A stretch of 64,000 nt of DNA from Candidatus Kapaibacterium sp. (GTDB lineage: Bacteria; Bacteroidota; Ignavibacteria; Kapaibacteriales; UBA2268). Positions 9,876 through 58,651 of this stretch are shown in pieces; the first letter of the stretch is position 1, and every line of letters begins with the position of its first letter. The notes under the pieces were generated by a model. That model saw nothing but the letters and a program-made list of their open reading frames with translations, made no database searches and was not told where the DNA came from. Both the position numbers and the translations under genes were made by a program. Where the stretch lies: assembly GCA_963665665.1 (NCBI GenBank), contig OY762428.1, positions 896,001 to 960,000 of the forward strand. Reading direction: 5' to 3'.

Positions 9876-9897
9876 TTTTCCATAATTATTTAAATTT

Positions 9898-9929
9898 AAA
9901 AAACCCCGGGATATTTCCGGGGTTTTTTT
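9898..9929. terminator. Bidirectional intrinsic terminator between convergent genes
   Basis: aaaaaaccccgg-gatattt-ccggggttttttt. Confidence 0.85.
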
Positions 9930-9958
9930 GTTTAGAAAATCGTTTTATTCAAAAAAAG

Positions 9959-41832: not shown

Positions 41833-41855
41833 CACTATTCTTAATAGTATAGAAC

Positions 41856-41893
41856 AATCCCCTCTATAGAATAATATAGCGGGGATTTTTTTT
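41856..41893 (+). terminator. Intrinsic terminator after surA-like gene
   Basis: aatcccctctata...tatagcggggatt followed by a T run. Confidence 0.8.
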
Positions 41894-41921
41894 GCTGTTA
41901 TTATTTTGGTAAAACTACAGG

Positions 41922-42381
41922 ATAGCAAACCTGCCATGCGCCGCTGATTCTCGGGTCATTCATGCGGAATTCAGTAGTCAGGCTGTTCCCTGCGCCCTTT
42001 ATCTTATCATCCTTTTCCATGCCGTTAAAGCCCCACCTGTTGCTGCCGCCAAAGAACCTGCCTTCCTCCATAAACCCATTGTCTGAACTATGATTTTTGG
42101 GATGGGCAGGATTAATAGGATAAGAAATCTGAACATCCTATAATCCTTCTTTATCCTATACATCCCAGTGCAGAAAATGGAAACAGTGGCGCGCACATTA
42201 CCGAGGTGGTCAGTTAAGTGATATTGCTTTTCGCCCACAATGCGGTAAAACTGGCTGCCCCGGTCATACTCCAGTGGCTCGTATGCCAGTTCTTCCTTCG
42301 GCTGGCGAATGGCAAACTTACCATGCGCCGCCGAGCCGTATATATCCCACTCGGAGAGGATGGGGTTTGTTTTCAAAGAAC
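41922..42381 (-). pseudogene. Cassette 8: RHS core stub without toxin or immunity
   Basis: boxA-like motif, stub with a 102-bp foreign segment (42078-42179), ends at RMNDPRI. Confidence 0.85.
42369..42381 (-). promoter_or_regulatory. boxA-like motif GTTCTTTGAAAAC (cassette 8)
   Basis: Exact 13-mer, 27 bp after the immunity stop. Function inferred. Confidence 0.65.
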
Positions 42382-42408
42382 TGGAGAAATATCTGCATTT
42401 AATAAAAA

Positions 42409-42915
42409 TTAATAAAAATAATTATTTTTTTGATTTCCAATAAAATCAATTTTTGCCTTAACTTTTTTCCAATTTTTGGAATAAATATAAAATATTGTAT
42501 CATTTTTAGGTTTCATTATCAAATCATATTTGAAGTAACGGGTATATTCTCTGGGTATTCTGATTCTTATTGAATTTGAATCAATTACCTTAATAAAAAA
42601 GTAATTAAAATTCAATAAACTATGATTTATACAAGAATCAAGTGAAATCATTATATTTGAATATGAACTATGATAACTATTTTTTATACTATATATTTGA
42701 CCGATTATTATATAATTTAAAAAGGCTCTATTGCATGAATCAGATACAATACTTTTTTCATTTGATGTTAGGTATCTAATATTGTAAGGTTCACTATACA
42801 TTTCTTCTTCATTAATAATTGATTGTCTAATAACAAAAATGGCAAATACCACCCCAGATATTGCAATGATAAATGTTAAAATTGTAATTAAACATCCATT
42901 TTTTTTCTTTACCAC
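42409..42915 (-). CDS. Putative immunity protein, cassette 7 (N-terminal membrane anchor)
   Basis: Start overlaps the toxin stop; very AT-rich; one TM segment. Confidence 0.7.
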   Translation of the reverse strand: MVKKKNGCLITILTFIIAISGVVFAIFVIRQSIINEEEMYSEPYNIRYLTSNEKSIVSDSCNRAFLNYIIIGQIYSIKNSYHSSYSNIMISLDSCINHSLLNFNYFFIKVIDSNSIRIRIPREYTRYFKYDLIMKPKNDTIFYIYSKNWKKVKAKIDFIGNQKNNYFY

Positions 42916-44219
42916 TAATTACCTCTTAAATAATCTTTAATATCATTAGTAAAATTATTAATATGTGTCCAGGGAAACACCCCTCCAGTCATCATTTCAA
43001 TATGCTTTCCTAATATATTTATTTGACCACTTGTTGAATTCATTAATTCTTTTGTTTTTACAGGATAACGATCTAATAGAAATGATACTGTTTTTGAATA
43101 AACATAATTCAATCGTGAACTTTTCCCTATTCCTACACCAAAACCGAAGCTAAAACCATACCAGTAATCTGCTTTCTCTGGAGGATCATTCCACCATTCA
43201 TATCCTTCTCTTGCAAAATAAGTTGCACCAACAGAAGCACCATATTTCTGAAATATTGCAGCAGATATTGATTGATTGGTGTTCGTTCCAGCAAATGATT
43301 CTGGAGTAATATCACTATCATCGCCTTGCCACCAAGCAGCAAAAGCAGCAGCCTGAATTGAAATATCCGCTCCAGCAATATCTTTAATTTTTAATGGCAT
43401 GTAATTTCCTCCTCCCAATTCTAAGTTCAAGTAGCGATATGGTACAAATGCATAATATCCTTTTGTAAAAATTACAAATGAAGCATCACCTATTGAAGCT
43501 TTTATTCCTGCAGCACTTACAAATGCATTTGCTTCTATTGAAATATCAATTCCAATAGCATCAGGAACATCATATTGATTTAGATTTTTGTATGAACTAT
43601 TTTCAATATCAAATGGTACTTCAAAATTCTTTTTAGCAAATGAATCATGTTCAAACATTATTGAATTACCATTATTGCCAGTTATCGAAATAGTATCCAG
43701 ACCGCTTGGATCTGCAAACCAAATAGGATTACCACTAAAAGAAGAGTATGGGCTTTCCCATTCCTTAACTACCATATCCTGTCGCCACCACTTTACAGTT
43801 CTTGTGTCTAACATCCGAAACTCAGTGTTCAGGCTATTCCCTGCCCCTTTTATCTCATCATCTTTCTCCATGCCGTTAAAGCCCCAGCGGTTGCTGCCGC
43901 CAAAGAAGAACCTGCCTTCCTCCATAAAGCCGAAGGGATAGAAGCTGGCAGCCGTAATGGTATTGGTAAGGAAGCCGCCGCCGCTCGGCTCTTTTATATC
44001 CGAAACAGTGGCGCGCACATTACCAAGGTGGTCAGTCAGGTGGTACTGCTTTTCGCCTACTATGCGGTAAAACTGGCTGCCCCGGTCATACTCCAGTGGA
44101 TCGTACACCAGTTCTTCTTTCGGCTGGCGAATAGCAAACTTACCATGCGCCGCCGAGCCGTATATATCCCACTCGGAGAGGATGGTGTTGGTTTTCAAAG
44201 AACGTATATATAAATTCAC
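42915..44219 (-). CDS. Cassette 7: RHS core tip plus unknown C-terminal toxin domain
   Basis: Intact stub, NPIWFADPSG, then an unrecognised ~260 aa domain. True start uncertain (a TTG inside the boxA-like motif is in frame). Confidence 0.85.
   Translation of the reverse strand: MNLYIRSLKTNTILSEWDIYGSAAHGKFAIRQPKEELVYDPLEYDRGSQFYRIVGEKQYHLTDHLGNVRATVSDIKEPSGGGFLTNTITAASFYPFGFMEEGRFFFGGSNRWGFNGMEKDDEIKGAGNSLNTEFRMLDTRTVKWWRQDMVVKEWESPYSSFSGNPIWFADPSGLDTISITGNNGNSIMFEHDSFAKKNFEVPFDIENSSYKNLNQYDVPDAIGIDISIEANAFVSAAGIKASIGDASFVIFTKGYYAFVPYRYLNLELGGGNYMPLKIKDIAGADISIQAAAFAAWWQGDDSDITPESFAGTNTNQSISAAIFQKYGASVGATYFAREGYEWWNDPPEKADYWYGFSFGFGVGIGKSSRLNYVYSKTVSFLLDRYPVKTKELMNSTSGQINILGKHIEMMTGGVFPWTHINNFTNDIKDYLRGN
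44191..44203 (-). promoter_or_regulatory. boxA-like motif GTTCTTTGAAAAC (cassette 7)
   Basis: Exact 13-mer, 12 bp after the immunity stop. Confidence 0.65.
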
Positions 44220-44986
44220 TGTTTAAATGTTAGGGGAACAACTTTTTTTTCTTCCCTTGAATACAAAGCATCAAAAATATTTTTCATATCAACAGTATCT
44301 CTTTGGCCATTCTTCTCAATTATTTTTTCAAATAAGTAACTACCTCCTATAGTTTCCCAATCTCTATCTCTGAAATAAAATATACCATATTTATTGTTAA
44401 AATAATATTCGGGTACAAAAGGTATTGATCCTTGATTTTTTATACCGTACTCATTTTTGAATATTTTAAATTGAAGATTTGATGAAATTGAAATTTTCTG
44501 GAATTTTTCTAATTGATCATTAATCATTAGAGTATCAATCACCGCAAAAGTACTAAATTGGATATTACCATCTTTATCTAAAAGTCTAATATGATTATAT
44601 AAAGAATCAGTATTTGGATAAAAGTACAAAAGTGAATCATTTGTATTAAATATCTTAAATATATTCCTATCACTTAATTTACCGTGTAATTCATATTGTA
44701 GCTTGTCTTTTTTTATATAAACTGTATCCCGATAATAAATAAGTCCATCAGGCGTATATTTATAACAATTGTTATAATAATCGTAGTGCTTTATTGTATC
44801 AAAATAAAAGTCATTTGAAATTGAATCATATTTCTTGATCAAAGGAATTTCTGACGAACCATAAAAAAAAACTTTTTTTCTTAACAACCAACTTCGATAT
44901 ACTATTTCATCATATTCGTTATCTTCAGAACAGGAAGAAAATAATAAAATGTTAACAAAAAGCAAGATTATCGATTTTTTCACCAT
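44216..44986 (-). CDS. Putative immunity lipoprotein, cassette 6
   Basis: Lipobox LLFSSC; overlaps the toxin stop. Confidence 0.75.
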   Translation of the reverse strand: MVKKSIILLFVNILLFSSCSEDNEYDEIVYRSWLLRKKVFFYGSSEIPLIKKYDSISNDFYFDTIKHYDYYNNCYKYTPDGLIYYRDTVYIKKDKLQYELHGKLSDRNIFKIFNTNDSLLYFYPNTDSLYNHIRLLDKDGNIQFSTFAVIDTLMINDQLEKFQKISISSNLQFKIFKNEYGIKNQGSIPFVPEYYFNNKYGIFYFRDRDWETIGGSYLFEKIIEKNGQRDTVDMKNIFDALYSREEKKVVPLTFKQ

Positions 44987-45945
44987 TTCTTTTTATAACC
45001 TCCTGATTCAAATTTTTTCTTTTTCTCATTTAAATGATCTCTAACAGTATCATCTGGATCTGGTTTATCTTTTATTCTATTTAAATTAATAAATTTTTTG
45101 ATTTCAGCTTTTAACTTTGCAGCTTTTAATATACTAATTATATGTTTGTCATATGTCGTTCCTTTTCTCCAATTCTCAGAATGTAACTTAATATATGCAA
45201 AGTAGTTAAAACACTCAATTTTATTAAAATCATTAAGTTTCTTATTATTTAACATTTCCCAGCCCAATTCCCTAAATTCAAGCCAAAAATATCTCCATTG
45301 ATCACCATGCAAATTTACTTCATGACTCCAAGTATTCACAATTTTTAATAATTGATAATCAGGATAATTATCATATGCAGACCATGCCCACAAATCCTTC
45401 TCAACGCGAAAATTGATTAAAAAGCGCCCATCTTTTTTTAGTTCACCAATGGCTTCACCAGCTCCATCATATTTGGTGTCTTGAATACTAAAATTAGCAT
45501 CCATACCATGATTATGATTCGTACCGTTTTCTTCAGCACTAATTGAAAAATCAATTATTTTTCCTTCCATTTTAAATCCTTCATGAGCATAAGATAATAT
45601 TGTCTTTCTGCCTTGTGGAGTTGATGCCCACAACTCAAATGCTTTCACTTGGATTTTATTCTTCAATTCACCTGTTTTTTCATCATAGTTATAAATTCCA
45701 TCAACATTAGCGCTATCACCCCTCGGATCGCTATAGAAAACAGGATTGTTGTCATATCCGGCATAACGGCTGATTGACGGATTTGGTTTGGGATCCAGGC
45801 TCCACCACCGGCCGCCAATTCTCGGATCATTCAGGCGGAATTCAGTAGTCAGGCTGTTCCCTGCGCCTTTCATCTCATCATCCTTTTCCATGCCGTTAAA
45901 GCCCCACCTGTTGCTGCCGCCAAAGAAGAAGCGGCCTTCCTCCAT
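44980..45945 (-). CDS. Cassette 6: RHS tip plus HExxxH toxin domain (upstream stub disrupted)
   Basis: NPVFYSDPRG and WSHEVNLHG. The stub at 45946-46244 carries a foreign segment at 45952-46053. Confidence 0.8.
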   Translation of the reverse strand: MEEGRFFFGGSNRWGFNGMEKDDEMKGAGNSLTTEFRLNDPRIGGRWWSLDPKPNPSISRYAGYDNNPVFYSDPRGDSANVDGIYNYDEKTGELKNKIQVKAFELWASTPQGRKTILSYAHEGFKMEGKIIDFSISAEENGTNHNHGMDANFSIQDTKYDGAGEAIGELKKDGRFLINFRVEKDLWAWSAYDNYPDYQLLKIVNTWSHEVNLHGDQWRYFWLEFRELGWEMLNNKKLNDFNKIECFNYFAYIKLHSENWRKGTTYDKHIISILKAAKLKAEIKKFINLNRIKDKPDPDDTVRDHLNEKKKKFESGGYKKKW

Positions 45946-46244
45946 AAAACCATTGTCTGAACTATGATTTTTGGGATGGGCAGGATGATTTGGATAATAA
46001 ATTGGAACATCCTATAATCCTTCTTTATCCTATACATCCCAGTGCAGAAAATGGAAACTGTGGCGCGCACATTACCGAGGTGGTCGGTCAGGTGGTATTG
46101 TTTTTCGCCTACTATACGGTAAAAAGCGCTGCCTCGTGGTATTTCACTCGGCGAGTACACAAGTTCTTCCTTCGGCTGGCGAATAGCAAACTTACCATGC
46201 GCCGCCGAGCCGTATATATCCCACTCGGAGAGGATTTTGTGTTG

Positions 46245-46256
46245 GTTTTCAAAAAC
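46245..46256 (-). promoter_or_regulatory. boxA-like variant GTTTTTGAAAAC (cassette 6)
   Basis: One-base deletion variant at the same position in the cassette. Confidence 0.5.
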
Positions 46257-46347
46257 TTTAATACAAAAACACTATGGTAGTAATTAATGACTACAAATAA
46301 TATTATGGCAGAATATCAACGAATATTATCATCTATGATTTCGTTTT

Positions 46348-46710
46348 TTATGAAACTATCTCGCCAAGAATAAAAAGTAATATTATAATCATTAAAAATG
46401 CCATTAGTCTCAAATATAACATACTTTTACTCTGATATTTAAAATCAAATTCTTCTGCAATTTTTTTATGCTTTTCTTTCCATACATACATAAAAAAGTT
46501 TTTAAAAAACAGCAATATATAAGTAACAGTAATTACTATACTTTCAATATCCCATACAATATCAAATATACAGAAAATTAAATAAAACAAATTTATTAAA
46601 AAAACTAATTCAAAAAATGATATTAAAATAATTGTATAAAATTCGATATAAGTTTCTTCGCGACGAAATTTTCTATTGAGATAATAGATTATATAAAATA
46701 TTTCTTTCAT
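46348..46710 (-). CDS. Putative membrane immunity protein, cassette 5
   Basis: 120 aa, about 3 TMs; paralog of 49809-50171. Confidence 0.75.
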   Translation of the reverse strand: MKEIFYIIYYLNRKFRREETYIEFYTIILISFFELVFLINLFYLIFCIFDIVWDIESIVITVTYILLFFKNFFMYVWKEKHKKIAEEFDFKYQSKSMLYLRLMAFLMIIILLFILGEIVS

Positions 46711-46725
46711 AGTGTATGTCCTTAT

Positions 46726-47922
46726 TTAAAAATTGCGGTTTGTTTTTGATATTGGCCGAACCATATTTCCTAATTTTGATCCATCATACTGACTAAAATC
46801 ATAATCCTGATCAAAAATTCGTTCCCATTTTCGAATTGCATCTCCCATTCGTCGAGGAAGATGAACAACTTTACGAATTAATGCCCAATTACCATTTGGA
46901 TAATGTTCATCAGCTCTATACCAATAACGTGCATCGCGAGTATTGCTTAAAGCAAATTTTCCAATAGATAGTGTCAGTCCAGCTGGTGGTGAAATATATG
47001 CAACACCGCTAAACAAACCATCTAATGCAAGATCAGTTCCTGAAATATTATTTTCCCGATATTCATCTAAACTAAGTGCTGTTGAAAGTATAACCAATGA
47101 TGTTCCAATTGTTTTACCAGCTTTGGCAATATTGAATGATGATGATGAACCTAACATTGCAGATCCAATACTTCCAATTAATAAGCCAGCTTGTGCTGCT
47201 TTATTAAATTGATCTTGATCAGTAATTTCAATTAAAATATTTTCTCCATGACCAACAATAACTAAACCCCACTCATCCATCACAGCAGTCCAATACTTAT
47301 CTTCTGGGAATATATCAGCAACTTTTGGTAGACCGTATTTTCCAACAGCCTCTTCAACTCCTGATTGATCAAATCCTGTTATTTTATCAGCCTCAACCGC
47401 AACATCTTCTAATTTTGCATCATTCACCCAATTTCCATCTTGAAAAGTCCAATTAAATCCTTTATAATTACTTCTTGTATCTCCTTCATGTGGTGTTACA
47501 TCTTCTCCTGCGTTATATTTTGAAGTCAGATCTTCGAGTCCAGACGGATCAATAAACAAGATTGGATTATTCCCATATCCACTATAAGGACTCGTCCAGG
47601 GCTTCACAATAGGATCTCTTGACCACCACCTGCCGCCAATTCTCGGGTCATTCATGCGAAATTCCGTGGTCAGGCTGTTCCCTGCCCCTTTTATCTTATC
47701 ATCCTTCTCCATGCCATTAAAGCCCCACCTGTTACCACTACCAAAGAACCTGCCTTCCTCCATGAACCTCCCGATTGTTTTATGGAATTGGAATGCGGTC
47801 GGGATTTCGCTTCGCTCAACAAAGGGATAGAAGCTGGCGGCGGCTTCGCCGCAATTAACAATTGACAATGAACAATTGAAAATGAAGAGAAAAGAACAGC
47901 CGACCCAATTGTTAATTCTCAA
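46726..47922 (-). pseudogene. Cassette 5: RHS tip plus hydrophobic (possibly membrane-active) toxin domain, stub disrupted
   Basis: NPILFIDPSG. The ORF start lies inside the foreign segment 47842-47943; a second insert sits at ~47767-47820. Paralog of cassette 3. Confidence 0.78.
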
Positions 47923-48010
47923 TTTTCAATTTTTAATTGGATACGGCTGGCGAATAGCAAACTTGCCATGCGCCGCCGAGCCATATATATCCCATTCGGA
48001 AAGGATGTGT

Positions 48011-48023
48011 GTTTTCAAAGAAC
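48011..48023 (-). promoter_or_regulatory. boxA-like motif GTTCTTTGAAAAC (cassette 5)
   Basis: Exact 13-mer, 15 bp after the immunity stop. Confidence 0.65.
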
Positions 48024-48038
48024 GGAATTATTTTGATA

Positions 48039-48464
48039 TTAATTTTCAATATAGGTTAATTCAAGATTGTTAATTTTTAACGAATAGTCTAGATTAATCT
48101 TTTGATATAAATCAACACATAAGGATAACTGGTCATTTACTTTAAAAATATACTTAAAAATTTCATCATGAATGATATAAACTTCAGAATAAAAACCATA
48201 TTTATCAAATAAATCTTGAAAAATAATCTCAAAAGATCCACCGATACTTAATGATTTTATTTTATTATTTTCAGTATGTAAAAAAATATTATTAAAAATT
48301 TTATTTTTAGGTTTAATAAAATATGTACCAATTCCATTAATACTATCAATATCACCTAATTGCCTGATTGTTTTCTCTATGTTTTTTGTCTCAACAAGAA
48401 ACAAAAAATAATCAATAAATTTTTGTAATTCTATAATATCAAGTTTAAATAATGTATTTATCAT
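48039..48464 (-). CDS. Putative cytoplasmic immunity protein, cassette 4
   Basis: Starts 2 bp after the toxin stop; no signal peptide. Confidence 0.7.
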   Translation of the reverse strand: MINTLFKLDIIELQKFIDYFLFLVETKNIEKTIRQLGDIDSINGIGTYFIKPKNKIFNNIFLHTENNKIKSLSIGGSFEIIFQDLFDKYGFYSEVYIIHDEIFKYIFKVNDQLSLCVDLYQKINLDYSLKINNLELTYIEN

Positions 48465-48466
48465 AT

Positions 48467-49711
48467 TTAATCCACAATTTCGTATTTGACATTAGGTGAA
48501 AATAATTGAGTTTCACCACCCTTATAAATTTCTCCACTTCCATCTAAAGCTTTAAAATCATTTGCTGTACTTTGCAAGAATTCTGTGTTCTCTAATAGTT
48601 TAATTTTCACTTTTTTTCTATTTTTTAAAGAAATTCCAAGCTTGTTTTTATCTGCTCCCAATTTTGTGAAATAATTTCCAATTTTAACTTCTCCAGTATT
48701 TTTATCTACATAGGCCCATTGCTCAAGTATTGTCCCTTTTTCATAAGGTTTAGTAAATACTGGCTTATCAAAATCTATTCCCATTAAATGACTTGCTCTA
48801 TGATTATCATCCGTAAACCCATTAATTCTATAAAAATTATCAGCCAATGAATATCTCTTGAGGTTTGTTGTTGATTTGATTATTGACTTAAATACTTTCA
48901 TACTATTGTAAATGCAATAAGCAGAAGTTGCAAGATCTGCGGCTCCTCCCCAGAATCTTAAGTGTCCCTCAAAATCAGCATCCACAACATCATAGTGATT
49001 AGTTTCATATATGCCATTGTTTATTGACCAACCGTATGATTTCCCATCGCCTCCAGATGCTCCAGATACACCAATATCACCGAACAATTCATCAGCATTC
49101 GTTAAAAAGTAAACAATTCCATCAACAGTAGCTTCAAAAGTTGCCTTAAGATATGCTACTTCGGCTCTCTTGATATCATCACTTCTGTTTATCGGAAGGA
49201 ATTCCAATCCCTCCAATTCTACACCATCAATGACTCGATTTTCAGAAAACGCGTAGGATGAGTTATGTGGATATTTTGCCGCAATTGGGTCTATGGCGAA
49301 AAATCTTCCGGAACGTGGATCATACATCCTGTATTTATAGTTTATGATGTTTGCAAGGCCACGAATTTCGTCGTCCCGTTCCTGCCCCTGCATGCCCCAG
49401 CGGTTCTTGCCACCGAAGAAGAAGCGCCCTTCCTCCATGAAGCCGAAGGGATAGAAGCTGGCGGCCGTAATGGTATTGGTAAGGAAGCCGCCGCCGCTTG
49501 GCTCTTTTATATCCGAAACGGTGGCGCGCACATTACCGAGGTGGTCAGTCAGGTGGTATTGTTTTTCGCCTACTATCCGGTAAAATGCACTGCCCCTGTC
49601 ATACTCCAGTGGATCGTAAACAAGTTCTTCTTTCGGCTGGCGAATAGCAAACTTACCCTGCGCCGCAGAGCCGTAAATATCCCACTCGGAAAGGATGAGT
49701 GAGGTTTTCAA
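48467..49711 (-). CDS. Cassette 4: RHS tip plus polymorphic toxin type 46 (Ntox46)-like domain
   Basis: SENRVIDGVELEG core end. The CT motifs SHLMGIDFDKPV, EQW, GNYF, LGI, LQSTA and GGETQLF resemble Ntox46 (recognised from memory, no HMM run). Confidence 0.75.
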   Translation of the reverse strand: MKTSLILSEWDIYGSAAQGKFAIRQPKEELVYDPLEYDRGSAFYRIVGEKQYHLTDHLGNVRATVSDIKEPSGGGFLTNTITAASFYPFGFMEEGRFFFGGKNRWGMQGQERDDEIRGLANIINYKYRMYDPRSGRFFAIDPIAAKYPHNSSYAFSENRVIDGVELEGLEFLPINRSDDIKRAEVAYLKATFEATVDGIVYFLTNADELFGDIGVSGASGGDGKSYGWSINNGIYETNHYDVVDADFEGHLRFWGGAADLATSAYCIYNSMKVFKSIIKSTTNLKRYSLADNFYRINGFTDDNHRASHLMGIDFDKPVFTKPYEKGTILEQWAYVDKNTGEVKIGNYFTKLGADKNKLGISLKNRKKVKIKLLENTEFLQSTANDFKALDGSGEIYKGGETQLFSPNVKYEIVD

Positions 49712-49716
49712 AGAAC
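49704..49716 (-). promoter_or_regulatory. boxA-like motif GTTCTTTGAAAAC (cassette 4)
   Basis: Exact 13-mer, 92 bp after the immunity stop. Confidence 0.65.
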
Positions 49717-49808
49717 TTTAATTCAAAAACACAATGGTAGAAATTATTGACAAAAAATAATATTATGGCAAAATATCAACGAATATTATTATCTATGATT
49801 TCGTTATG

Positions 49809-50171
49809 TTATGAAACTATCTCGCCAAGAATAAAAAGTAATATTATAATTATTAAAAATGCCATTAGTCTCAAATATAACATACTCTTACTCTGATATT
49901 TAAAATCAAATTCTTCAGCAATTATTTTATACTTTTCTTTTCTAACATACAGAAAAAAATTTTTAAGATACAACATTAACCAAATTATTGCAACCACAAT
50001 ATTTTCAATATCCCATACAATATCAAATATACAGAAAATTAAATAAAACAAATTTACCAAAAAAAATATTTCGAATAGAGATAGTAAAATAATCGTGTAA
50101 AATTCAACATACGTTTCATCTCTTCGAAATTTTCTATTAAGATAATATATTATATAGAATATTTCTTTCAT
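49809..50171 (-). CDS. Putative membrane immunity protein, cassette 3
   Basis: 120 aa, about 3 TMs; paralog of 46348-46710. Confidence 0.75.
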   Translation of the reverse strand: MKEIFYIIYYLNRKFRRDETYVEFYTIILLSLFEIFFLVNLFYLIFCIFDIVWDIENIVVAIIWLMLYLKNFFLYVRKEKYKIIAEEFDFKYQSKSMLYLRLMAFLIIIILLFILGEIVS

Positions 50172-50229
50172 AATTCTTTCTCCAATTTAATTCAATACAG
50201 TATAAGTAATATTTTAAAATATTGAAAAA

Positions 50230-51372
50230 TTACCAGTTTCGCTTTACTCTATGAGTACGAACCATATTTCCAAGTTCAGATCCTTCATACTGACTTAAAT
50301 CATATTCTTGGTCAAATATCCTTTCCCATTTCCTTATTGCGTTTCCCATTCTTGTTGGAAGAAAAGCATATTTGCGTATCAATGCCCAGTTACCATTTGG
50401 ATAGTGTATATCTGCCCGATACCAATAACGTGAATATATTGAATGACTAAGAGCAAATTTCCCAATTGCTAAGGTTATACCTGCAACTGGACAAAAATAT
50501 GCTACACCTGTGATTCCCAAATCAATTGCAAAATCAGTTTTTGATATATTATTGTTTCTTAGTTCATTTAAACTAATTGCTGTTGACAATATTGCTAATG
50601 AATTTCCCAGAAATTTACTAGCTGTTAAAATATTAGCTTTACTAGAGCTACTTAGTACATTAGACAGAACACCTCCAAGTACTAAACCACCCCCCAAAGC
50701 TGTTTTATATTTATCCTCATCAGTAATTGAAAGTAATATATTATCACCATGACCAACAACAACTAATCCCCACTCATCCATCACAGCAGTCCAATACTTA
50801 TCCTTAGGGAATATATCAGCAACTTTAGATAGACCGTATTTTCCAACAGCTTCTTCAACCCCTGATTGATCAAATCCTGGTTTTTTATCAGTTTCAACCA
50901 CAACATTTTCTGATTTTACATCATTTACCCAATTTCCATCTTGAAAGGTCCAATTATACCCCTTATGATTTTGTCTTGTATCACCTTCATGTGGTGTTAC
51001 ATCTTCTCCTGCATTATATTTCGAAGTCAGATCTTCGAGTCCGGACGGATCAATAAACAAGATTGGATTATTACCATATCCACTATAAGGACTCGTCCAG
51101 GGTTTCACAATTGGATCTCTTGACCACCACCTGCCGCCGATTCTCGGGTCATTCATGCGGAATTCGGTTGTCAGGCTGTTCCCTGCCCCTTTTATCTCGT
51201 CATCCTTTTCCATGCCGTTGAAGCCCCACCTGTTACCACTACCAAAGAACCTGCCTTCCTCCATGAAACCGAAGGGATAGAAGCTGGCGGCGGCTTCGCC
51301 GCAATTAACAATTGACAATGAACAATTGAAAATGAAGAGAAAAGAACAGCCGACCCAATTGTTAATTCTCAA
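50230..51372 (-). pseudogene. Cassette 3: RHS tip plus hydrophobic toxin domain, stub disrupted
   Basis: NPILFIDPSG and Gly-rich hydrophobic helices. The ORF start lies inside the foreign segment 51292-51393. Confidence 0.78.
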
Positions 51373-51462
51373 TTTTCAATTTTTAATTGGCTACGGCTGG
51401 CGAATAGCAAACTTCCCATGCGCCGCCGAGCCGTATATATCCCATTCGGAAAGGATGGTGTT

Positions 51463-51475
51463 GGTTTCAAAGAAC
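51463..51475 (-). promoter_or_regulatory. boxA-like variant GTTCTTTGAAACC (cassette 3)
   Basis: 12/13 match, 21 bp after the immunity stop. Confidence 0.6.
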
Positions 51476-51496
51476 GAAAGAAATATATATTTTAAA

Positions 51497-52177
51497 TCAT
51501 TTATTATTTAAAATTTGATCCAATACATCTTTAGGAAATTTGAAGTCGATATCTTCATTTGAATGAAAGAAACTAGTATCCTTTTTTACCATTTGAATTA
51601 AATTCAATATCTCAGATTCTTTATATGAAGCTCCTTCGATTTTTTTTATTTCATACATGAATCTCATTTTTGTTCCGACATAACAAATGAATCCGATATT
51701 ATCAACATAATAGGCTTCACATGAATGCATAGAATCTGATTTATCAAATAAGAATTTCGATACTTCAATTTCATCGTTAGAATTAATATTGAACAACTTT
51801 GTTTCTAAAAAGATTGATGTTTCTGGTATTACAGGCTTTAGCGAATAAACTATTTTATTCTTCCATTTTATGTACCGAAAATTAAATTCTGTAAAAGTTA
51901 AGGTATCTTTTCTAAAAAGTGATAATGATGTTATTTTATTTGTCGAATCAAACATATTATCATCAATCTTCAATTGATAGTAATGCTTGTATTCAGTCCA
52001 ATTATGGAATGTACATCTATTATAAAACACCCCCGAATTATTTTTATTAACTTCAATAATGAAAGACAAATATCCAGAATATGAATCCTTATATTCGATC
52101 TTAAAAGTTTTAGTATTGTCCTTATCATTACAACATGAAAATAATATTATCATCAATAAAATAAAATAATTTTTCAT
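51497..52177 (-). CDS. Putative immunity lipoprotein, cassette 2
   Basis: Lipobox ILFSC; lies 14 bp after the toxin stop. Confidence 0.75.
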   Translation of the reverse strand: MKNYFILLMIILFSCCNDKDNTKTFKIEYKDSYSGYLSFIIEVNKNNSGVFYNRCTFHNWTEYKHYYQLKIDDNMFDSTNKITSLSLFRKDTLTFTEFNFRYIKWKNKIVYSLKPVIPETSIFLETKLFNINSNDEIEVSKFLFDKSDSMHSCEAYYVDNIGFICYVGTKMRFMYEIKKIEGASYKESEILNLIQMVKKDTSFFHSNEDIDFKFPKDVLDQILNNK

Positions 52178-52191
52178 AACTTCCTTTAATA

Positions 52192-53421
52192 TTAATTATT
52201 TATTTTACTTAAAACCTTATTATTACTTTTTTTTAAATCATTTATATTCTTTACTGATAGATATTGAGTCCAGCAATGATTTAATACACCTAAATTCCAA
52301 ATATCTTCCGAAGTTAGACCAAGATTATAATTATTTGAAAAATTTCGTAACATGGGAAAAGCTTCTTCCTTAAGTCTTTGGATATGGAAAAATAACTCGA
52401 TATTTGTGCTCTTATAAAGTCCAAACAGCTGTGAATATAACCCGAGGAGAGCATCTTGTTGATTTGCTCTTTCCTGTTTATGATACCAGTCAAACCCATA
52501 TTTAATTATTGCTTCTGTAACAAAAAGTTGATGTACATAATTTTCGTGAACAATTGTCCCTAACCTATCCAATAATAATAGATTATAAGTATAATCATTT
52601 GGTGATTCTCTGAAAGCTTTATGTAATGGTTCAACAGTATGAAGTGATTTATTAAATAATACTTCCACTTGATACCGTCCTCCTACTATTGGTACGGTTT
52701 TAGTTCCTTCATAATCAAAAAGGTTTAATTGTGATGCTTCATCACCCATATATTTAGTAGTATAAACGGCATCAATTTTTGCCTTATGGAAATCCCCATC
52801 TTTATCAAATTTAACCTCTTTTCCACCAACTTTTAATATTTGATCTTTTTTTGCAAATTGAGCTAAATATGCTTTGCCTTCAGGTGAAACCATCCATTCT
52901 CCAAAAATTTTATCTGTTGATTTTTCTGGATCATCAAATCCATTTAGTATAATTTCCCTTCCATCAGGATCGGAAAACATTATCGGGTTGTCGCCGAAAG
53001 CTAAATATGAGGAAAATCCGGGATATTTCCCAATTAAAGGGTCAATATTTTGCCTCATGGCCTTGCGCGGGTCGTAGCCATAATCCCCAAAACTAAGGCG
53101 GTTGCCAATTCCACGCACTTCATCGTCCTTCTCGTGCCCACCAAAGCCCCAGCGGTTGCTGCTGCCAAAGAACCTGCCTTCCTCCATAAAGCCGAAGGGA
53201 TAGAAGCTGGCGGCCGTTATGGTGTTGGTGGTGAAGCCGCCGCCACTCGGCTCCTTTATATCCGAAACAGTGGCGCGCACATTGCCCCCGACAAGTCGGG
53301 GCAGGCAAGGTGGTCTGACGAGAGAGTTCCCCTCTTGAGGGGTGCCCGAAGGGCGGGGTGGATAAAAAGGCTGTAGGTTGAAGGCAGTATTTCCATATTT
53401 CGCAATACAAAAGAACCCCAC
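52192..53421 (-). pseudogene. Cassette 2: RHS tip plus HExxxH toxin domain, stub disrupted by a REP-like element
   Basis: NPIMFSDPDG and IVHENYVHQ. The ORF start lies within the REP segment; genuine RHS sequence resumes at ~53287 (GNVRATVS). Confidence 0.78.
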
Positions 53422-53461
53422 CCCGTCTCGCTGCGCTCGCCACCCCTCCAGAGGGGAATTT
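53288..53461. repeat. Composite REP-like element
   Basis: GC-rich palindromes ccccgacaagtcgggg, ttcccctcttgaggggtg and cacccctccagaggggaa, the last two in inverted arrangement. Confidence 0.8.
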
Positions 53462-53510
53462 TTGCCATGCGCCGCCGAGCCGTATATATCCCACTTGGAG
53501 AGAATTTTGT

Positions 53511-53523
53511 GTTTTCAAAGAAC
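53511..53523 (-). promoter_or_regulatory. boxA-like motif GTTCTTTGAAAAC (cassette 2)
   Basis: Exact 13-mer, 19 bp after the immunity stop. Confidence 0.65.
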
Positions 53524-53542
53524 GGAATTAAGAAAGTTAATT

Positions 53543-54247
53543 CTAATTATCAATATATGTTCTGTCTTCAAATTCCCACTTTGCTTTAAGAATTTCTGAT
53601 AACAGATATATTTCTAAAAAGTGATAAGTCTTATATTTTGGATTATTTCTGTCATACATCTCATCCATATCTGTATATATGAAAAATTCATCATTTAATT
53701 TAATCCAGATATTTGTTTCATAATGGACTTTCGAAAAAAGTGGGATTTTGTTCGATGTTTTGAAACTTTTTAATATGTATATAATTTTTCCAACAAATTC
53801 TACCGAACTGATGCTGGCAATAAACTTTGGTAAGTCATGTTTACTAAAGCTATATATCTCAATATTATAAGAATTACCATCCAGAGAGTCCGGATTTGAA
53901 TAAATTCCATTAATTGGATTTTCAGTTGTATAACAATCTCTTTTAAATACAAACAAGTACTGCCTAGATTTGGGCCGGTTTCTCATGTCAACCATAGAAT
54001 TCCATTGACGTTGAATTAGTATAAAATCAAAACTACTTGAATCAGAATGAACAATCTTACTCTTTCCATTGATTTTAGGAATAATATTTTTTATTCTTTC
54101 AATAATATAATCAATATCTGTTTCATCAGCAATAGAAGAGCCTCTATCTAATAACTTATTGTTTTTATTTATATTAAAAGGATTGCACCCAAAAAAAAGG
54201 AGTAAAACAATTAAAAAAATATATGTGTTAATATTAACATTTTTCAT
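53543..54247 (-). CDS. Putative immunity lipoprotein, cassette 1
   Basis: Lipobox LFFGC; ATGA overlap with the toxin stop. Confidence 0.75.
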   Translation of the reverse strand: MKNVNINTYIFLIVLLLFFGCNPFNINKNNKLLDRGSSIADETDIDYIIERIKNIIPKINGKSKIVHSDSSSFDFILIQRQWNSMVDMRNRPKSRQYLFVFKRDCYTTENPINGIYSNPDSLDGNSYNIEIYSFSKHDLPKFIASISSVEFVGKIIYILKSFKTSNKIPLFSKVHYETNIWIKLNDEFFIYTDMDEMYDRNNPKYKTYHFLEIYLLSEILKAKWEFEDRTYIDN

Positions 54248-55326
54248 TTTATTAATCCTTGATCTCTCATACTATCAATAATGTCTTCTTCATCTTCATT
54301 ATGGAACTCTTTTGGATCTCCGCCAATGGGAACTTTTACATCCAAAGGATCAAGTCCAAAAAATACTCTAATGGGATTAAGGAAATTTTTTCTCCATCCT
54401 GATGGAACCTTATATATACTTCTAAATCTAATTTCCCAAAGAGTTGTTTCCATGCAATTATCTTTCATATAGAAACCTCTAGTTTGGAATACTTTCCAAT
54501 TGGGATGGGTAAGATATAGATACGAATGACCTAGTTCATGTAATGCGATTATTCCATATTCCCAACTATCTACTTCTTTTTGTTCTCTTTCATTCGCCAT
54601 TACTATATCTTTAAAATAAATATTTACACTTGTTAGATTTCCATTAGCGTCAAAAACCGGATCAGCAAGACCATTACCAAACAGATTATCCAATTTACGA
54701 GTTTTTCCTCCTCCCCAGTAATAGGTCAAATTAGCGCTGCCACTCTGGGTGACCATATTAACAAAAATCGGATCTTCAATATTTCTTTTTACCTTTTCAT
54801 AAACCTCTAATTGTTCGGAATTATAATTTGAAATATCAAAGTTATAATTGATTTCCCATCTTCTGGTTTTATTATTATACGAAAACGGATGATCTGGTCC
54901 AAGAGTATTTTTTAAACCTATATTTGTTTTATCCCATGAAGCCTGATCACTCACAACTGTATCACCCCTCGGATCGCTATAGAAAACAGGATTGTTGTCA
55001 TATCCGGCATAACGGCTGATTGACGGATTGGGCTTGGGATCCAAACTCCACCACCTGCCGCCAATTCTCGGGTCATTCATGCGGAATTCGGTTGTCAGGC
55101 TATTCCCAGCACCTTTTATCTCATCATCCTTTTCCATACCGTTAAAACCCCAGCGGTTACTGCCGCCAAAGAAGAAGCGGCCTTCCTCCATGAAGCCGAA
55201 GGGATAGAAGCTGGCTGCGGTAAAGGTTTTTGTGAAGAAGCCGCCGCCACTTGGCTCCTTTATATCCGAAACAGTGGCGCGCACATTGCCCAAATGATCT
55301 GTTAAATGGTATTGTTTTTCGCCCAC
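54244..55326 (-). CDS. Cassette 1: RHS tip plus HExxH metallopeptidase-like toxin domain
   Basis: NPVFYSDPRG and IALHELGHSY. RHS homology extends upstream to ~55449 without an in-frame start. Confidence 0.82.
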   Translation of the reverse strand: MGEKQYHLTDHLGNVRATVSDIKEPSGGGFFTKTFTAASFYPFGFMEEGRFFFGGSNRWGFNGMEKDDEIKGAGNSLTTEFRMNDPRIGGRWWSLDPKPNPSISRYAGYDNNPVFYSDPRGDTVVSDQASWDKTNIGLKNTLGPDHPFSYNNKTRRWEINYNFDISNYNSEQLEVYEKVKRNIEDPIFVNMVTQSGSANLTYYWGGGKTRKLDNLFGNGLADPVFDANGNLTSVNIYFKDIVMANEREQKEVDSWEYGIIALHELGHSYLYLTHPNWKVFQTRGFYMKDNCMETTLWEIRFRSIYKVPSGWRKNFLNPIRVFFGLDPLDVKVPIGGDPKEFHNEDEEDIIDSMRDQGLIK

Positions 55327-55454
55327 TATGCGGTAAAACTGGCTGCCCCGGTCATACTCCAGTGGCTCGTATACCAGTTCTTCCTTTGGCTGGCGAATAG
55401 CAAACTTACCATGCGCCGCCGAGCCGTATATATCCCACTCGGAAAGGATTTTGT

Positions 55455-55467
55455 GTTTTCAAAGAAC
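55455..55467 (-). promoter_or_regulatory. boxA-like motif GTTCTTTGAAAAC (cassette 1)
   Basis: Exact 13-mer, 45 bp after the immunity stop. Confidence 0.65.
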
Positions 55468-55512
55468 GGGAATTAATGAATTTTAAAAATATTCAAGAAA
55501 AAACCGGATCAA

Positions 55513-56043
55513 TTATTTCCATCCTTCTGGTAAATTTAAAAAATCGTATTTATTCGAATCAAATACTACCATTATTAAACTTGAAGGACCAAGGATAAAT
55601 ACCTGGTTTTGTTCATAGTCTTCTGGTTGACCAGAAATTATTATTAGTTTTTTACCATTATCAAATTTTATTTTTATGCCTAATAATTCATGATTTTTCA
55701 TATAGGTGTCTGATAGCAAATCAATATTTTCTTCTTGATAACAAAAAGTTTTTTTTCTATACCAAAAATCTAACTCAATTATTTTTTTATTATATATTTT
55801 TTTCCAATTATTATCATTTCTCTTTGTATCATCATCAGAACAGCTATCAATTGTATCAATTTTTATTTCAGAGTAACTACCCTGCCAATAATCACTAAAC
55901 TTATAATAATTCCCATCATCTAATTTTATAATTAACTTATTTTCTATCTCATAGAAATCTAATTCTCCTTTAAAAGGAATTTCTTCATCATAATACACAG
56001 GCTCACAATAAGCCTCAATTATTTTTTTTAATTTAATATCCAT
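55513..56043 (-). CDS. Putative cytoplasmic immunity protein for the head toxin
   Basis: Acidic 176 aa protein overlapping the toxin stop; no signal peptide. Confidence 0.75.
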   Translation of the reverse strand: MDIKLKKIIEAYCEPVYYDEEIPFKGELDFYEIENKLIIKLDDGNYYKFSDYWQGSYSEIKIDTIDSCSDDDTKRNDNNWKKIYNKKIIELDFWYRKKTFCYQEENIDLLSDTYMKNHELLGIKIKFDNGKKLIIISGQPEDYEQNQVFILGPSSLIMVVFDSNKYDFLNLPEGWK

Positions 56044-58453
56044 ATTGCCTCGGGTTTTCTGGATGTACAGTTACTGTTTTCTTTCCTTTTATTGTAAAGA
56101 TATTTGATTCTCCACTAATTGTCCCATCCTTTACTCTAAAAGTTCCACTTACCTTTTCGTATTTTACAACAATTTCGTTTTTATTTACTACTTTGAGAAC
56201 AGTAGCGGTTCCAGAATGATAAGCATTAAGAACTCTTTGAGCATCCTCAATTGAATGCATTGTTCCTTTAGTTACGATTGTATTAGTCGGGACATTCATT
56301 TCTAAGTGCTTATGTGTTTTCATCTTTTGGATACTTACTGTTCGCCCAATTTGTAAATCTATTGAAGGATTGCTTGCTTCAATCTTAGAAATTATCTTTT
56401 TCGGTTTAAAAGCTCCAACGCTGGCTTTACCAACCTTACCCATGAAATAACCGTCAATTGCAAGCCGAATTGGATCGTCAAGACCAGATACTTCCCCGAC
56501 ACGTTTCCAGAAATCGAACTTATCATAATAATATTGATCAGGTTTTACCCCAATTTCAATTGCTGCATCAGGATTACTGGCAAAATCATCTTCTTTTTCG
56601 ATATTCCACGACCAAATCCATAAGTTATCATCTTCAGGATTTCTATCACTAAAAGTATAGGTGTTGCCATTATAGTGATAAATACTATAATTCCCTTCAA
56701 GTTCCTGCCCGTTTAGCTCATCAACTGTTTCTCCTTCAATTTTTTCAAAACTGCCATCTTCGTTTTTCTTCAGGGTATAATGAGTTGCATCGAGTCCCAT
56801 CGGATCAGCAAAAACAATCGGGTTGTCGCCGAAAGCTAAATATGAGGAAAATCCGGGATATTTCCCAATTAAAGGTTCAATATTTTGTCTCATAGCCTTG
56901 CGAGGGTCGTAGCCATAATCCCCAAAACTAAGGCGGTTGCCAGTTCCACGCACTTCATCGTCCTTCTCGTGCCCACCAAAGCCCCAGCGGTTGCTGCCGC
57001 TGAAGAAGAAGCGGCCTTCCTCCATAAAGCCGAAGGGATAGAAGCTGGCAGCGGTAATGGTATTGGTAAGGAAGCCGCCGCCGCTTGGCTCTTTTATATC
57101 CGAAACAGTGGCGCGCACATTGCCCAAATGATCTGTTAAATGATATTGTTTTTCGCCAACAATTCTATAAAAAGCGCTGCCTCTCGGTATTTCACTTTCA
57201 GTATATACCAGTTCTTCCTTTGGCTGGCGAATAGCAAACTTACCATGCGCCGCCGAGCCGTATATATCCCACTCGGAAAGAACATGCCGATCAGGAAACA
57301 GCAGCACATCATTTCCATCTGATGCATACAAATACAACTTTTCAGGCACAGTTTTTTTCGATTCATATATAGCGAGCACCTGCCCGTTGGCATCAAGCAT
57401 GTAGTAGGTGGAACCTACGCCAACCTGATCAAGAAGGAGGTTTAAAGACTCTGTCGGATCTGCAACAAAAGGTGCAACAACATTGTTGACTTCATGTATC
57501 ATCACATCCTTACCAACCCTGTTGCCAAATGCATCGTACATGAAGCTGATCTTCACGGGTTGGCTGACAGTATTGCTGTTATTAGAAACAATCATATCCT
57601 TTTCCACATAGCTGACCTTGCCGTCGGCAGTCCATTCTATGTGATTTATATTATCCTTCACGTCGCTGATCAGGTTTCCGGAAGCGTCGTAGGTATAAGC
57701 ATAAAAATCAGTTACAGGATTTGGGGTTTCCAGGTCGCGCGTACTTGCCGTAGTTCCGGGCATATCTTTAAGAATGCTTAGGCGGTTGGTTCTGTAAACC
57801 GGCCCTGACGGTGAATACCGAAAGTCCTGATAGAGATAATTAAGATCATCAAGCTGTACGCCGGAATTATCATTCCTCACCAGGTTCATCAGGTTGCCAT
57901 TGGCGTCGTAATTATAATGTGAGGAATTATTAGGGCTGTTTGCCCATGCTCCGGCAGTATAATTATAAGTAGTATTATCCTTCAGCCTGTTCAGCTTATC
58001 GTATTGGAACAGCCTTGCCCTGGAGCTTTCAAAATTTAGCGGGTCAGGCATCTTTGCTGATGTTTCTGAGCCGTAATACTCTTCCCATGCCGCTATATTG
58101 CCGTCATAAAGGGAATGATTAACGGCTCCGGCAGTAGGCAGCAGAGTAGCGCCGTTGCCAAAATCTGTACTGTTATGAACAAAATCCTTGTCGCCGCTGC
58201 CGTCATTGTAATAATCAAGAGTATATCCGTAGGCGTCGCCCGGAGTGGCCCCGGAAACGCCGTATTCCGGGTTGTTATGATTATCCTCGATATTAACGGA
58301 TTTAAGCCATCCGTTTATGGTGTAGAGGAAGTCAATACCCTGGATTTTGTCCTCGCCAAGCTCGATACGTTTCAGCGGGCCATGGAGGTAGTAGTAATAG
58401 GCGGCATCGCGATCCCAAATTTCCATATCCCGGTCGAGCATCAAAATCTCCAA
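56033..58453 (-). CDS. N-terminally truncated RHS/YD-repeat protein with Ntox50-like (putative RNase) tip
   Basis: YD repeats (YDKLNRL, YDANGNL, YDASGNL, YDAFGNR), HLTDHLGNVR, NPIVFADPMG. The basic CT (SIEDAQRVLNAYHSG...FTIKG..TVHPENP) is assigned from memory. Confidence 0.85.
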   Translation of the reverse strand: MEILMLDRDMEIWDRDAAYYYYLHGPLKRIELGEDKIQGIDFLYTINGWLKSVNIEDNHNNPEYGVSGATPGDAYGYTLDYYNDGSGDKDFVHNSTDFGNGATLLPTAGAVNHSLYDGNIAAWEEYYGSETSAKMPDPLNFESSRARLFQYDKLNRLKDNTTYNYTAGAWANSPNNSSHYNYDANGNLMNLVRNDNSGVQLDDLNYLYQDFRYSPSGPVYRTNRLSILKDMPGTTASTRDLETPNPVTDFYAYTYDASGNLISDVKDNINHIEWTADGKVSYVEKDMIVSNNSNTVSQPVKISFMYDAFGNRVGKDVMIHEVNNVVAPFVADPTESLNLLLDQVGVGSTYYMLDANGQVLAIYESKKTVPEKLYLYASDGNDVLLFPDRHVLSEWDIYGSAAHGKFAIRQPKEELVYTESEIPRGSAFYRIVGEKQYHLTDHLGNVRATVSDIKEPSGGGFLTNTITAASFYPFGFMEEGRFFFSGSNRWGFGGHEKDDEVRGTGNRLSFGDYGYDPRKAMRQNIEPLIGKYPGFSSYLAFGDNPIVFADPMGLDATHYTLKKNEDGSFEKIEGETVDELNGQELEGNYSIYHYNGNTYTFSDRNPEDDNLWIWSWNIEKEDDFASNPDAAIEIGVKPDQYYYDKFDFWKRVGEVSGLDDPIRLAIDGYFMGKVGKASVGAFKPKKIISKIEASNPSIDLQIGRTVSIQKMKTHKHLEMNVPTNTIVTKGTMHSIEDAQRVLNAYHSGTATVLKVVNKNEIVVKYEKVSGTFRVKDGTISGESNIFTIKGKKTVTVHPENPRQYGY

Positions 58454-58548
58454 ACCATAACTAAATATCTAATTGCCAATTAAATTATGAATATATTAGG
58501 AAATTAAAAAATTTATTTTCAGTTTAATGGATGCTTTCACCAATATAA

Positions 58549-58556
58549 CAAAGCTA
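58549..58556 (-). promoter_or_regulatory. Candidate -7 promoter element for the RHS array
   Basis: TAGCTTTG (TAnnTTTG) ~95 bp upstream of the head ORF and downstream of the valS hairpin; ATTG at the -33 position. Confidence 0.45.
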
Positions 58557-58592
58557 TGCGAGAATTGAAACATATACAATTATCAATAATCA

Positions 58593-58628
58593 AAACAGCC
58601 CGGCAATAATATTATCGCCGGGCTGTTT
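58593..58628 (-). terminator. Hairpin terminator after valS
   Basis: aaacagcccggc...gccgggctgttt. Confidence 0.75.
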
Positions 58629-58651
58629 CAATAATTACAAATAGCGTCGAT

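Follow-up and report, generated by a model that had tools for sequence, protein, structure and literature searches.

A boxA-like motif shared with the rRNA leaders heads the orphan cassettes of an RHS toxin/immunity array in Candidatus Kapaibacterium

Introduction

Outside phages, antitermination by boxA and the Nus factors is known at rRNA operons, in a few 5' untranslated regions and in the leaders of clustered regularly interspaced short palindromic repeat (CRISPR) arrays. In phage lambda, the nut site consists of boxA and a boxB hairpin, which is recognised by an N-type protein. A study on boxA elements located before CRISPR arrays, cited in PMC13753749, reportedly described Nus-dependent protection of these long untranslated arrays from Rho. 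Here we report a boxA-like 13-mer, GTTCTTTGAAAAC, at the heads of the orphan cassettes in an array of RHS toxin fragments and putative immunity genes. The array lies in a stretch of 64,000 nucleotides from Candidatus Kapaibacterium sp. (GCA_963665665.1, contig OY762428.1, positions 896,001 to 960,000), which we call the window and to which plain coordinates refer. Rrn operons, suhB and CRISPR leaders are well-established sites of boxA (PMC5725501; PMC13753749), and PMC13753749 notes that boxA is known to precede CRISPR operons. The 13-mer differs at one position from GYTCTTTAANA, the gamma-proteobacterial consensus given in PMC5725501.

Like a CRISPR array, the RHS array is long, repetitive and horizontally acquired, with distal units that have to be transcribed. 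CRISPR arrays, however, have one boxA in the leader, whereas the RHS array has one per unit and its units contain genes. The boxA of Escherichia coli suhB likewise lies outside rRNA and before protein-coding sequence, but it is a single, non-modular copy that represses translation and promotes Rho termination.

We are aware of no earlier description in which each orphan of an RHS array is headed by a conserved non-coding signal, and a literature search linking boxA to Rhs, polymorphic-toxin or immunity arrays found no paper among the top-ranked results. Both kinds of array are themselves established: orphan RHS arrays (PMC3150448, PMC3967940) and rAID immunity arrays, whose intergenic repeats are conserved (10.1101/471110, PMC12247911). 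As in the orphan rhs-CT/immunity arrays described in PMC3150448 and PMC3967940, an RHS head gene is followed here by displaced C-terminal modules that keep a piece of the core; in contrast to them, the head in the window is itself truncated, and a second array of the same genome is headless. The rAID-1 arrays of gut Bacteroidales, as described in bioRxiv 10.1101/471110 and PMC12247911, belong to the same phylum and likewise consist of orphan immunity genes of low GC and uniform orientation, between which repetitive motifs are conserved. They are defined, however, by an adjacent tyrosine recombinase, and none lies near either array here.

Results

A 13-mer heads every orphan cassette

Each orphan cassette consists of the motif, a spacer, about 170 RHS-core codons ending in a DPSGL-type motif (the stub), a divergent C-terminal domain and a small open reading frame (ORF). 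A motif scan of the window placed six exact copies of GTTCTTTGAAAAC and two variants at the heads of all eight orphan cassettes, every copy being on the coding (minus) strand of the array, at the positions given by a first-pass annotation of the sequence (Table 1). The variants are GTTCTTTGAAACC in cassette 3, with one mismatch, and the decayed AGTTTTTGAAAAC in cassette 6, with one base lost. With at most one mismatch allowed, the window has eight matches where 0.19 would be expected. One of them, GGTCTTTGAAAAC at 23030, falls inside an unrelated insertion sequence-like repeat and was rejected as an array motif; it is coding sequence in 18 near-identical repeats of this kind in the genome (23030 and 17 others).

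The motif recurs about every 1.7-2.2 kb along the array. In cassettes 1-8 it follows the stop codon of the preceding small ORF by 45, 19, 21, 92, 15, 90, 12 and 27 nt, and precedes the stub by 5, 5, 6, 7, 4, 9, 7 and 7 nt. The ORF stops and the head alignment agree with the annotated gaps of 12-92 nt and with the annotated spacers, which are G-free and A/C-rich and differ in both length and sequence.

Alignment of the eight heads with four from a second locus of the genome revealed three zones: an unconserved upstream part, the near-invariant 13-mer, and a variable spacer followed by the conserved stub, which begins with ATCCTYTCCGAGTGGGAT..., encoding ILSEWDIYGS. The cassette boundary is sharp and is identical in 11 of the 12 cassettes. 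If copies with up to one mismatch or one deletion are counted, all 12 orphan cassettes of the genome (8 in the window and 4 in the second array) carry the motif, which is kept even where the following stub differs, as in cassette b1 of the second array. In 5 of 11 cassettes the TTG within the motif shares the reading frame of the stub, compared with about 3.7 expected. This is near chance, in line with the annotation's view that the reading frame is not conserved, and translation start was rejected as the main function of the motif.

The same element is present in the rRNA and CRISPR leaders

We then counted the 13-mer in the whole genome (G000), a single contig of 5.46 Mb. The count proposed in the first-pass annotation gave 13 exact copies, where Markov models of order 0 to order 3 predict 0.37-0.87. 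Eight of them head RHS cassettes, two lie in rrn leaders and one in a CRISPR leader, one is intergenic in sense orientation, and one is antisense within coding sequence; 12 of the 13 are thus sense-oriented.

The array motif is identical, at 13 of 13 positions, to the element located 104 nt before both 16S genes. The rrn copies sit within the leader, downstream of Bacteroidota-type promoter-like sites, and the leader has a second, weaker copy, GAACTTTGAAAAC, behind an upstream promoter-like unit. Comparison with the rrn boxA of this organism, in the leader and in the 16S-23S spacer, had been suggested beforehand; the likeness was complete in both leaders, whereas the organism's own spacer holds only a 10/13 relative, GTACATTGACAAC. 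The array copies share with the rrn boxA their near-consensus sequence, sense orientation and repetition; in the relative G160, the rrn element occurs in the leader and again 460 nt past the 16S 3' end, the copies being 1.96 kb apart. The array copies differ from the rrn boxA in lying inside an array of protein genes, once per cassette (8 and 4), and not beside a promoter. Furthermore, the rrn leaders have a boxB-like hairpin before boxA, of which the window cassettes show no conserved counterpart.

The CRISPR-leader copy (G000:C1:127106-127118, minus strand) is in sense orientation, on the same strand as cas3-cas4-cas1-cas2; the stop codon of cas2 is about 65 nt away on one side and the first repeat about 150 nt away on the other. 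The array behind it is the only large one of the genome, with 103-104 repeats over about 6.9 kb. The remark in the annotation that boxA occurs upstream of CRISPR arrays thus applies to this very genome. The intergenic copy (G000:C1:3808425-3808437, plus strand), lies between a MATE-type transporter gene and a 564-aa ORF that starts 164 nt downstream, and may mark another target of boxA.

The second array (G000:C1:3372800-3376900) has four cassettes and no head gene, with two exact motifs and two that carry one mismatch; in its first cassette the motif is joined to a much shorter stub. This array (L011 = G000:C1:3366001-3386000, about 7000-10830, minus strand) directly follows an MFS-type transporter gene.

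Profile searches of the genome detected two matches to the NusB domain PF01029, one of them in a 205-aa frame, and one match to the Rho RNA-binding domain PF07497. NusB-domain and Rho genes, on which the annotation had made its proposal depend, are therefore present. S10 was assumed to be present as a universal ribosomal protein, no search for it having been made.

A per-cassette boxA as the favoured reading

On balance we consider it probable, judging from the sequence, that the motif is a NusB/S10 loading site belonging to each cassette, which makes read-through resistant to termination. The basis for this reading is the identity with the rrn and CRISPR leader elements, the sense orientation, the recurrence across genera and stub types, and the NusB and Rho genes. 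We infer from these that the array is transcribed as one unit, that NusB/S10 binds the motif and that antitermination results.

According to this model, the 13-mer would be the boxA of the organism, the RNA element bound by NusB and S10 (NusE) on nascent rRNA. A single minus-strand transcript would start from a promoter before the short RHS head gene and would meet a boxA at the start of each orphan cassette. Each copy, on emerging, would load or reload the Nus complex on RNA polymerase, so that elongation could pass about 1.2 kb of poorly translated or untranslated stub and toxin sequence and reach the putative immunity ORF and the next cassette. If boxA were missing, Rho or other termination would stop the array transcript. 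The per-cassette placement would mirror the leader-plus-spacer layout of rrn operons. Since the signal would travel with each cassette, distal genes would stay expressed after cassettes are duplicated, lost or reshuffled.

Repression of stub translation, as in suhB, may coexist with antitermination. It could also be the main effect: the Nus complex would then be recruited so that NusB/S10 blocks translation of the orphan toxin fragments, and antitermination would be secondary. Such repression is documented for the suhB boxA (PMC5725501), the motif lies only 4-9 nt before the stub with its TTG in the stub frame in 5 of 11 cassettes, and stubs of the relative G161 that have their own ATG carry no boxA. 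However, suhB repression leads to Rho termination, which would here silence the downstream immunity genes and the later cassettes. The frame is also not conserved, and the other settings of the motif in this genome, in the rrn and CRISPR leaders, are ones of antitermination. We judge this alternative unlikely. The G161 loci (L053-L055) have orphan RHS stubs beginning with an in-frame ATG (MPKLSEW or MKPKLSEW), and such translated orphans may be an alternative solution to the same problem.

Promoter-like and terminator-like sites of the array

Upstream of the head gene, a Bacteroidota-type promoter-like site presumably marks the start of the array transcript. A terminator-like hairpin just past the valS stop suggests that transcripts do not run on from valS into the array; this hairpin is absent from the output of our terminator scan because its loop is longer than the scan allows. 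On the coding strand between the cassettes, the scan for intrinsic terminators found none. A promoter scan with TT[TG]G-N17-23-TAnnTTTG gave five full matches in the region, none of which adjoins a motif; a sigma-70-type scan is not relevant to this phylum. TAnnTTTG at promoter spacing was found nowhere downstream of the motif and not consistently upstream of it, and an Rfam search of 41500-58800 with E values up to 1 matched no family.

These scans bear on another possible action of the motif, as part of a promoter, as the DNA site of a regulator, or as a processing site at which the transcript is cut into cassette mRNAs. In its favour, the motif contains TTTG, the -33 core of Bacteroidota promoters, it is common to highly expressed loci, and the second array, being headless, has to be expressed in some way. 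However, TAnnTTTG at promoter spacing is lacking downstream and not consistent upstream, the Rfam search was without a match, and the rrn element lies downstream of promoter-like sites, inside the leader. We regard an action of this kind as very unlikely.

The cassette junctions and the head gene

Homology between the head gene and the stubs starts at LSEWDIYGS, about 57283. At the place equivalent to the cassette heads, the head gene has ordinary coding sequence, ...CAT GTT CTT TCC GAG TGG (HVLSEW), as the annotation had stated. What had been missed is that GTTCTTT, with which the motif begins (7 nt), is also present in the head gene at 57283-57289 on the minus strand, exactly at the homology boundary. 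This may be a microhomology left from the first orphan junction, or a coincidence.

The GTTCTTT of the head gene, the sharp boundary shared by 11 of 12 cassettes, and hairpins beside the motif in relatives would all fit a DNA-level recombination or junction site, whether attC-like, rAID-like or an orphan-forming microhomology, with the boxA likeness being secondary. The repetitive intergenic sequences of rAID-1 arrays are described as reminiscent of integrons (bioRxiv 10.1101/471110). However, a search for tyrosine recombinases (PF00589) gave 10 genomic matches, none of them within about 200 kb of either array; the nearest lies about 214 kb from the window array, and the second array has none in its vicinity. 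Housekeeping genes flank the array, and all cassette copies are sense-oriented. Exact copies in both rrn leaders and in the CRISPR leader would be left unexplained, and in the relative G129 the head gene has no microhomology at either of two differing junctions. As an explanation of the motif, we consider a DNA site improbable. A recombinase crossover site had been named as a rival in the first-pass annotation; no recombinase was found nearby, while the GTTCTTT of the head gene and the hairpins of relatives leave room for a role of the sequence in junction formation.

The motif in relatives

In four of the five relatives with a 16S locus, the rrn element was present at -86 to -114 with diverged flanks (GTTCTTTGAAAAT, GCTCTTTGAAAAC, GTTCTTTGGAAAT); G179 and G129 have the exact form. 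Across the family, 121 of 130 genomes contain GTTCTTTGAAAAY, mostly 2-6 times, compared with 0-2 times for a reversed control pattern. The stub protein was matched in 69 of 254 genomes of the order.

In G129, which belongs to another genus of the same family, two cassettes have stubs starting 14 nt apart in head coordinates, and both stubs lie 4-6 nt behind GTTCTTTGAAAAC/T. In G177, G178 and G179, members of one genus, GTTCTTTGAAAAT and degenerate forms (GCTCTTTAAAAAT, GTTCTTTTAAAAT and others) stand at cassette heads, in the order motif, T-rich run, stable hairpin, stub. G159 has three copies, each followed 12 nt on by a hairpin (GGGCGAA...TTCGCCC or GGGCGGA...TCCGCCC) and then by a PT-HINT stub instead of an RHS stub; between its copies in locus L072 the hairpin shows a compensatory change from A-U to G-C. 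In these four genomes the stable hairpin lies 6-35 nt downstream of the motif, a layout that resembles the lambda nut site. An N-like protein is not known here, no search aimed at one having been made. The window cassettes differ in having no clear dedicated hairpin at their heads, because structure there falls within the conserved coding stub.

The PT-HINT array L072 (G159:C1:2038000-2054000) has heads at 2714, 5958, 7095 and 10649, the copy at 2714 being degenerate. Its cassette head is composed of boxA, a hairpin with a UGAAAG loop and a conserved AATTGGAATATTCCC box, and one neighbouring frame has an Ntox50 domain. Two further loci, L075 (G160:C92:1-3000) and L076 (G140:C210:1-3500), contain tandem units of about 400-480 nt, each starting with the exact 13-mer; these units are non-coding and have no convincing ORFs.

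The motif could also have no present function: a single capture at the 5' end of an ancestral orphan cassette would have been followed by copying, together with the stub, through duplication and gene conversion. Duplication is indeed evident for cassettes 3 and 5 and for the heads of 4 and 6, the stub beside the motif is conserved to the same degree as the motif, and the copy of cassette 6 is decayed. On the other hand, the spacer varies freely while the motif does not, and the motif persists where the stub is replaced or its start is shifted, as in b1 and at the G129 junctions. It also heads PT-HINT stubs in G159, and chance would not be expected to produce a match to the rrn boxA at 13/13 positions. 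Mere hitch-hiking appears to us highly improbable.

A wider form of the per-cassette reading can be put forward only tentatively, and we consider it rather doubtful. The RHS and PT-HINT orphan cassettes of the family might carry a portable nut-like module, composed of boxA and often a hairpin. Loading of NusB-S10 at every cassette would then keep toxin stubs untranslated and transcription termination-proof, with immunity genes expressed at any depth, and the 'integron-like' rAID repeats of gut Bacteroidales could be the same device.

Evidence weighing against a per-cassette boxA

Several observations speak against the reading that we favour. The boxA of E. coli suhB represses rather than activates (PMC5725501), and the GTTCTTT at the homology boundary of the head gene is a hint that the sequence had a part in forming the junction. 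The first-pass annotation had assumed AT-rich toxin stretches that attract Rho, which turned out not to be so. The stub and toxin segments have 38-41% GC with G exceeding C, only 0-3% of their 78-nt windows are of the C-rich, G-poor rut type, and it is the putative immunity ORFs that are AT-rich (19-26% GC).

The distribution of the motif gives further grounds for caution. Copies within one genome do not count as independent, since duplication links them. Among 60 orphan stubs of relatives, taken from 40 non-redundant loci, G[CT]TCTTT[GAT]AAA stands at the head of 10, in five genomes, against 0.5 expected, a figure that is inflated by the choice of four loci (L064-L067) after motif hits had been seen. 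The other 50 stubs lack the motif, and most of the fetched arrays have variable orphan boundaries without a boxA-like motif. Among the 20 loci first fetched by stub match alone, most (L046-L049, L051, L052, L054, L057-L060) are without it. The survey of relatives suggested in the annotation thus recovered the motif at orphan heads in other genera and on PT-HINT stubs, but most arrays do without it. In an independent sample from the wider Bacteroidota (80 loci, 75 orphan stubs), the motif heads 2 of 75 orphans by the core pattern or 3 of 75 with up to two mismatches, against 0.2-0.5 expected, one match being the already known G233 record. The remaining 72-73 stubs lack it, and we take the feature to be a real one that only certain lineages possess. 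Coding sequence can also produce near-matches: GTTCTTTGTAAAT, which encodes PFFVN of PT-HINT, and GTTCTTTCAAAAA, inside the g9 stubs, were both rejected as copies of the motif.

If the reading is true, boxA at every toxin/immunity cassette head would be a new class of Nus target and the first modular use of boxA, with the signal moving with the cassette. It would explain how genes of orphan arrays, many kb from the promoter and behind untranslated toxin remnants, are expressed and still protect the cell. With an element of only 13 nt, the idea lends itself to direct testing, and the motif could also be put to use in expressing long synthetic operons in Bacteroidota.

Anatomy of the array and accompanying elements

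The features of the array are listed in Table 1. The gene annotated as the head does have RHS repeats; it is, however, a short fragment and not a full-length RHS gene, the genome's full-length RHS elsewhere having a 2757-aa frame. The orphan translations share LSEWDIYGS...DPSGL and diverge beyond it. A Pfam search of the small downstream ORFs gave no hit, and their putative immunity function is assigned from position. At the array end (about 41999), a SurA-like gene on the plus strand converges on the array, and the flanking ORFs are SurA-like, type IX secretion system (T9SS)/BNR and OmpA-like.

Table 1. Features of the RHS array and its upstream flank (window coordinates)
Feature	Coordinates	Strand	Description
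valS	ends 58652		upstream flank of array
Terminator-like hairpin and T-run	58592..58628	-	just past valS stop; aacagcccggc ... gccgggctgtt tttg
Promoter-like site	58549..58580	-	Bacteroidota type, aTTG-N20-TAGCTTTG (TAGCTTTG is -7-like); upstream of head gene
Head gene	56033..58453	-	806-aa RHS-repeat ORF with own C-terminal domain; PF05593, E 4.7e-6
Small ORF after head	55513..56043	-	AT-rich, 176 aa, 24% GC; putative immunity gene; without Pfam hit
Motif, cassette 1	55455..55467	-	boxA-like 13-mer, exact
Cassette 1	53543..55454	-	5-nt spacer; RHS stub and C-terminal domain ORF 54244-55326; small ORF 53543-54247
Motif, cassette 2	53511..53523	-	boxA-like 13-mer, exact
Cassette 2	51497..53510	-	stub broken by hairpin-bearing insert; C-terminal domain ORF 52192-53421; small ORF 51497-52177
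Motif, cassette 3	51463..51475	-	boxA-like 13-mer, GTTCTTTGAAACC, 1 mismatch
Cassette 3	49809..51462	-	short stub; 109-nt CAATTG-rich insert; ORF 50230-51372; small ORF 49809-50171
Motif, cassette 4	49704..49716	-	boxA-like 13-mer, exact
Cassette 4	48039..49703	-	stub and C-terminal domain ORF 48467-49711 (motif TTG in frame); small ORF 48039-48464
Motif, cassette 5	48011..48023	-	boxA-like 13-mer, exact
Cassette 5	46348..48010	-	paralogue of cassette 3 (similar translations); ORF 46726-47922; small ORF 46348-46710
Motif, cassette 6	46245..46257	-	degenerate copy, AGTTTTTGAAAAC, one base lost
Cassette 6	44216..46244	-	broken stub; ORF 44980-45945; small ORF 44216-44986
Motif, cassette 7	44191..44203	-	boxA-like 13-mer, exact
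Cassette 7	42409..44190	-	stub and C-terminal domain ORF 42915-44219; small ORF 42409-42915
Motif, cassette 8	42369..42381	-	boxA-like 13-mer, exact
Cassette 8	41999..42368	-	decayed terminal stub without toxin/immunity pair; array end

The stubs of cassettes 2, 3, 5, 6 and 8 are broken or partly replaced by short inserts. The CAATTG-rich insert of cassette 3 (about 51286-51394) replaces about 55 stub codons and is also present in cassette 5 and in b1-b3 of the second array. It creates an ORF start, MRINNWVGCSFLFIFNCSLSIVNCG..., by which a lipoprotein-like signal peptide is joined to the remaining core and the toxin. The stub of cassette 2 is interrupted (about 53430-53475) by a hairpin element, CCCCTC-nnn-GAGGGG followed by TGGC(G/A)..GC. 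The same CCCCTC-nnn-GAGGGG element interrupts stubs in the arrays of G179, which belongs to another genus (L067, about 10700 and about 13330).

At the full-length RHS locus (G000:C1:1353000-1367313), three small ORFs and three tandem copies of a 134-aa ORF lie behind the RHS frame, and GTTCTTTGACAAT, with 2 mismatches to the motif, lies just before these tandem ORFs. Elsewhere in the genome, GTTCTTTGGAAAC, which has one mismatch and equals the variant of the rrn boxA in the relative G010, stands before two sets of tandem repeats, about 15 of 21 nt and about 14 of 22 nt. The whole element occurs in six copies (G000:C1:236323, 2721165, 2870583, 3994723, 4451510 and 4736380), two of which lie about 4 kb from tyrosine-recombinase genes.

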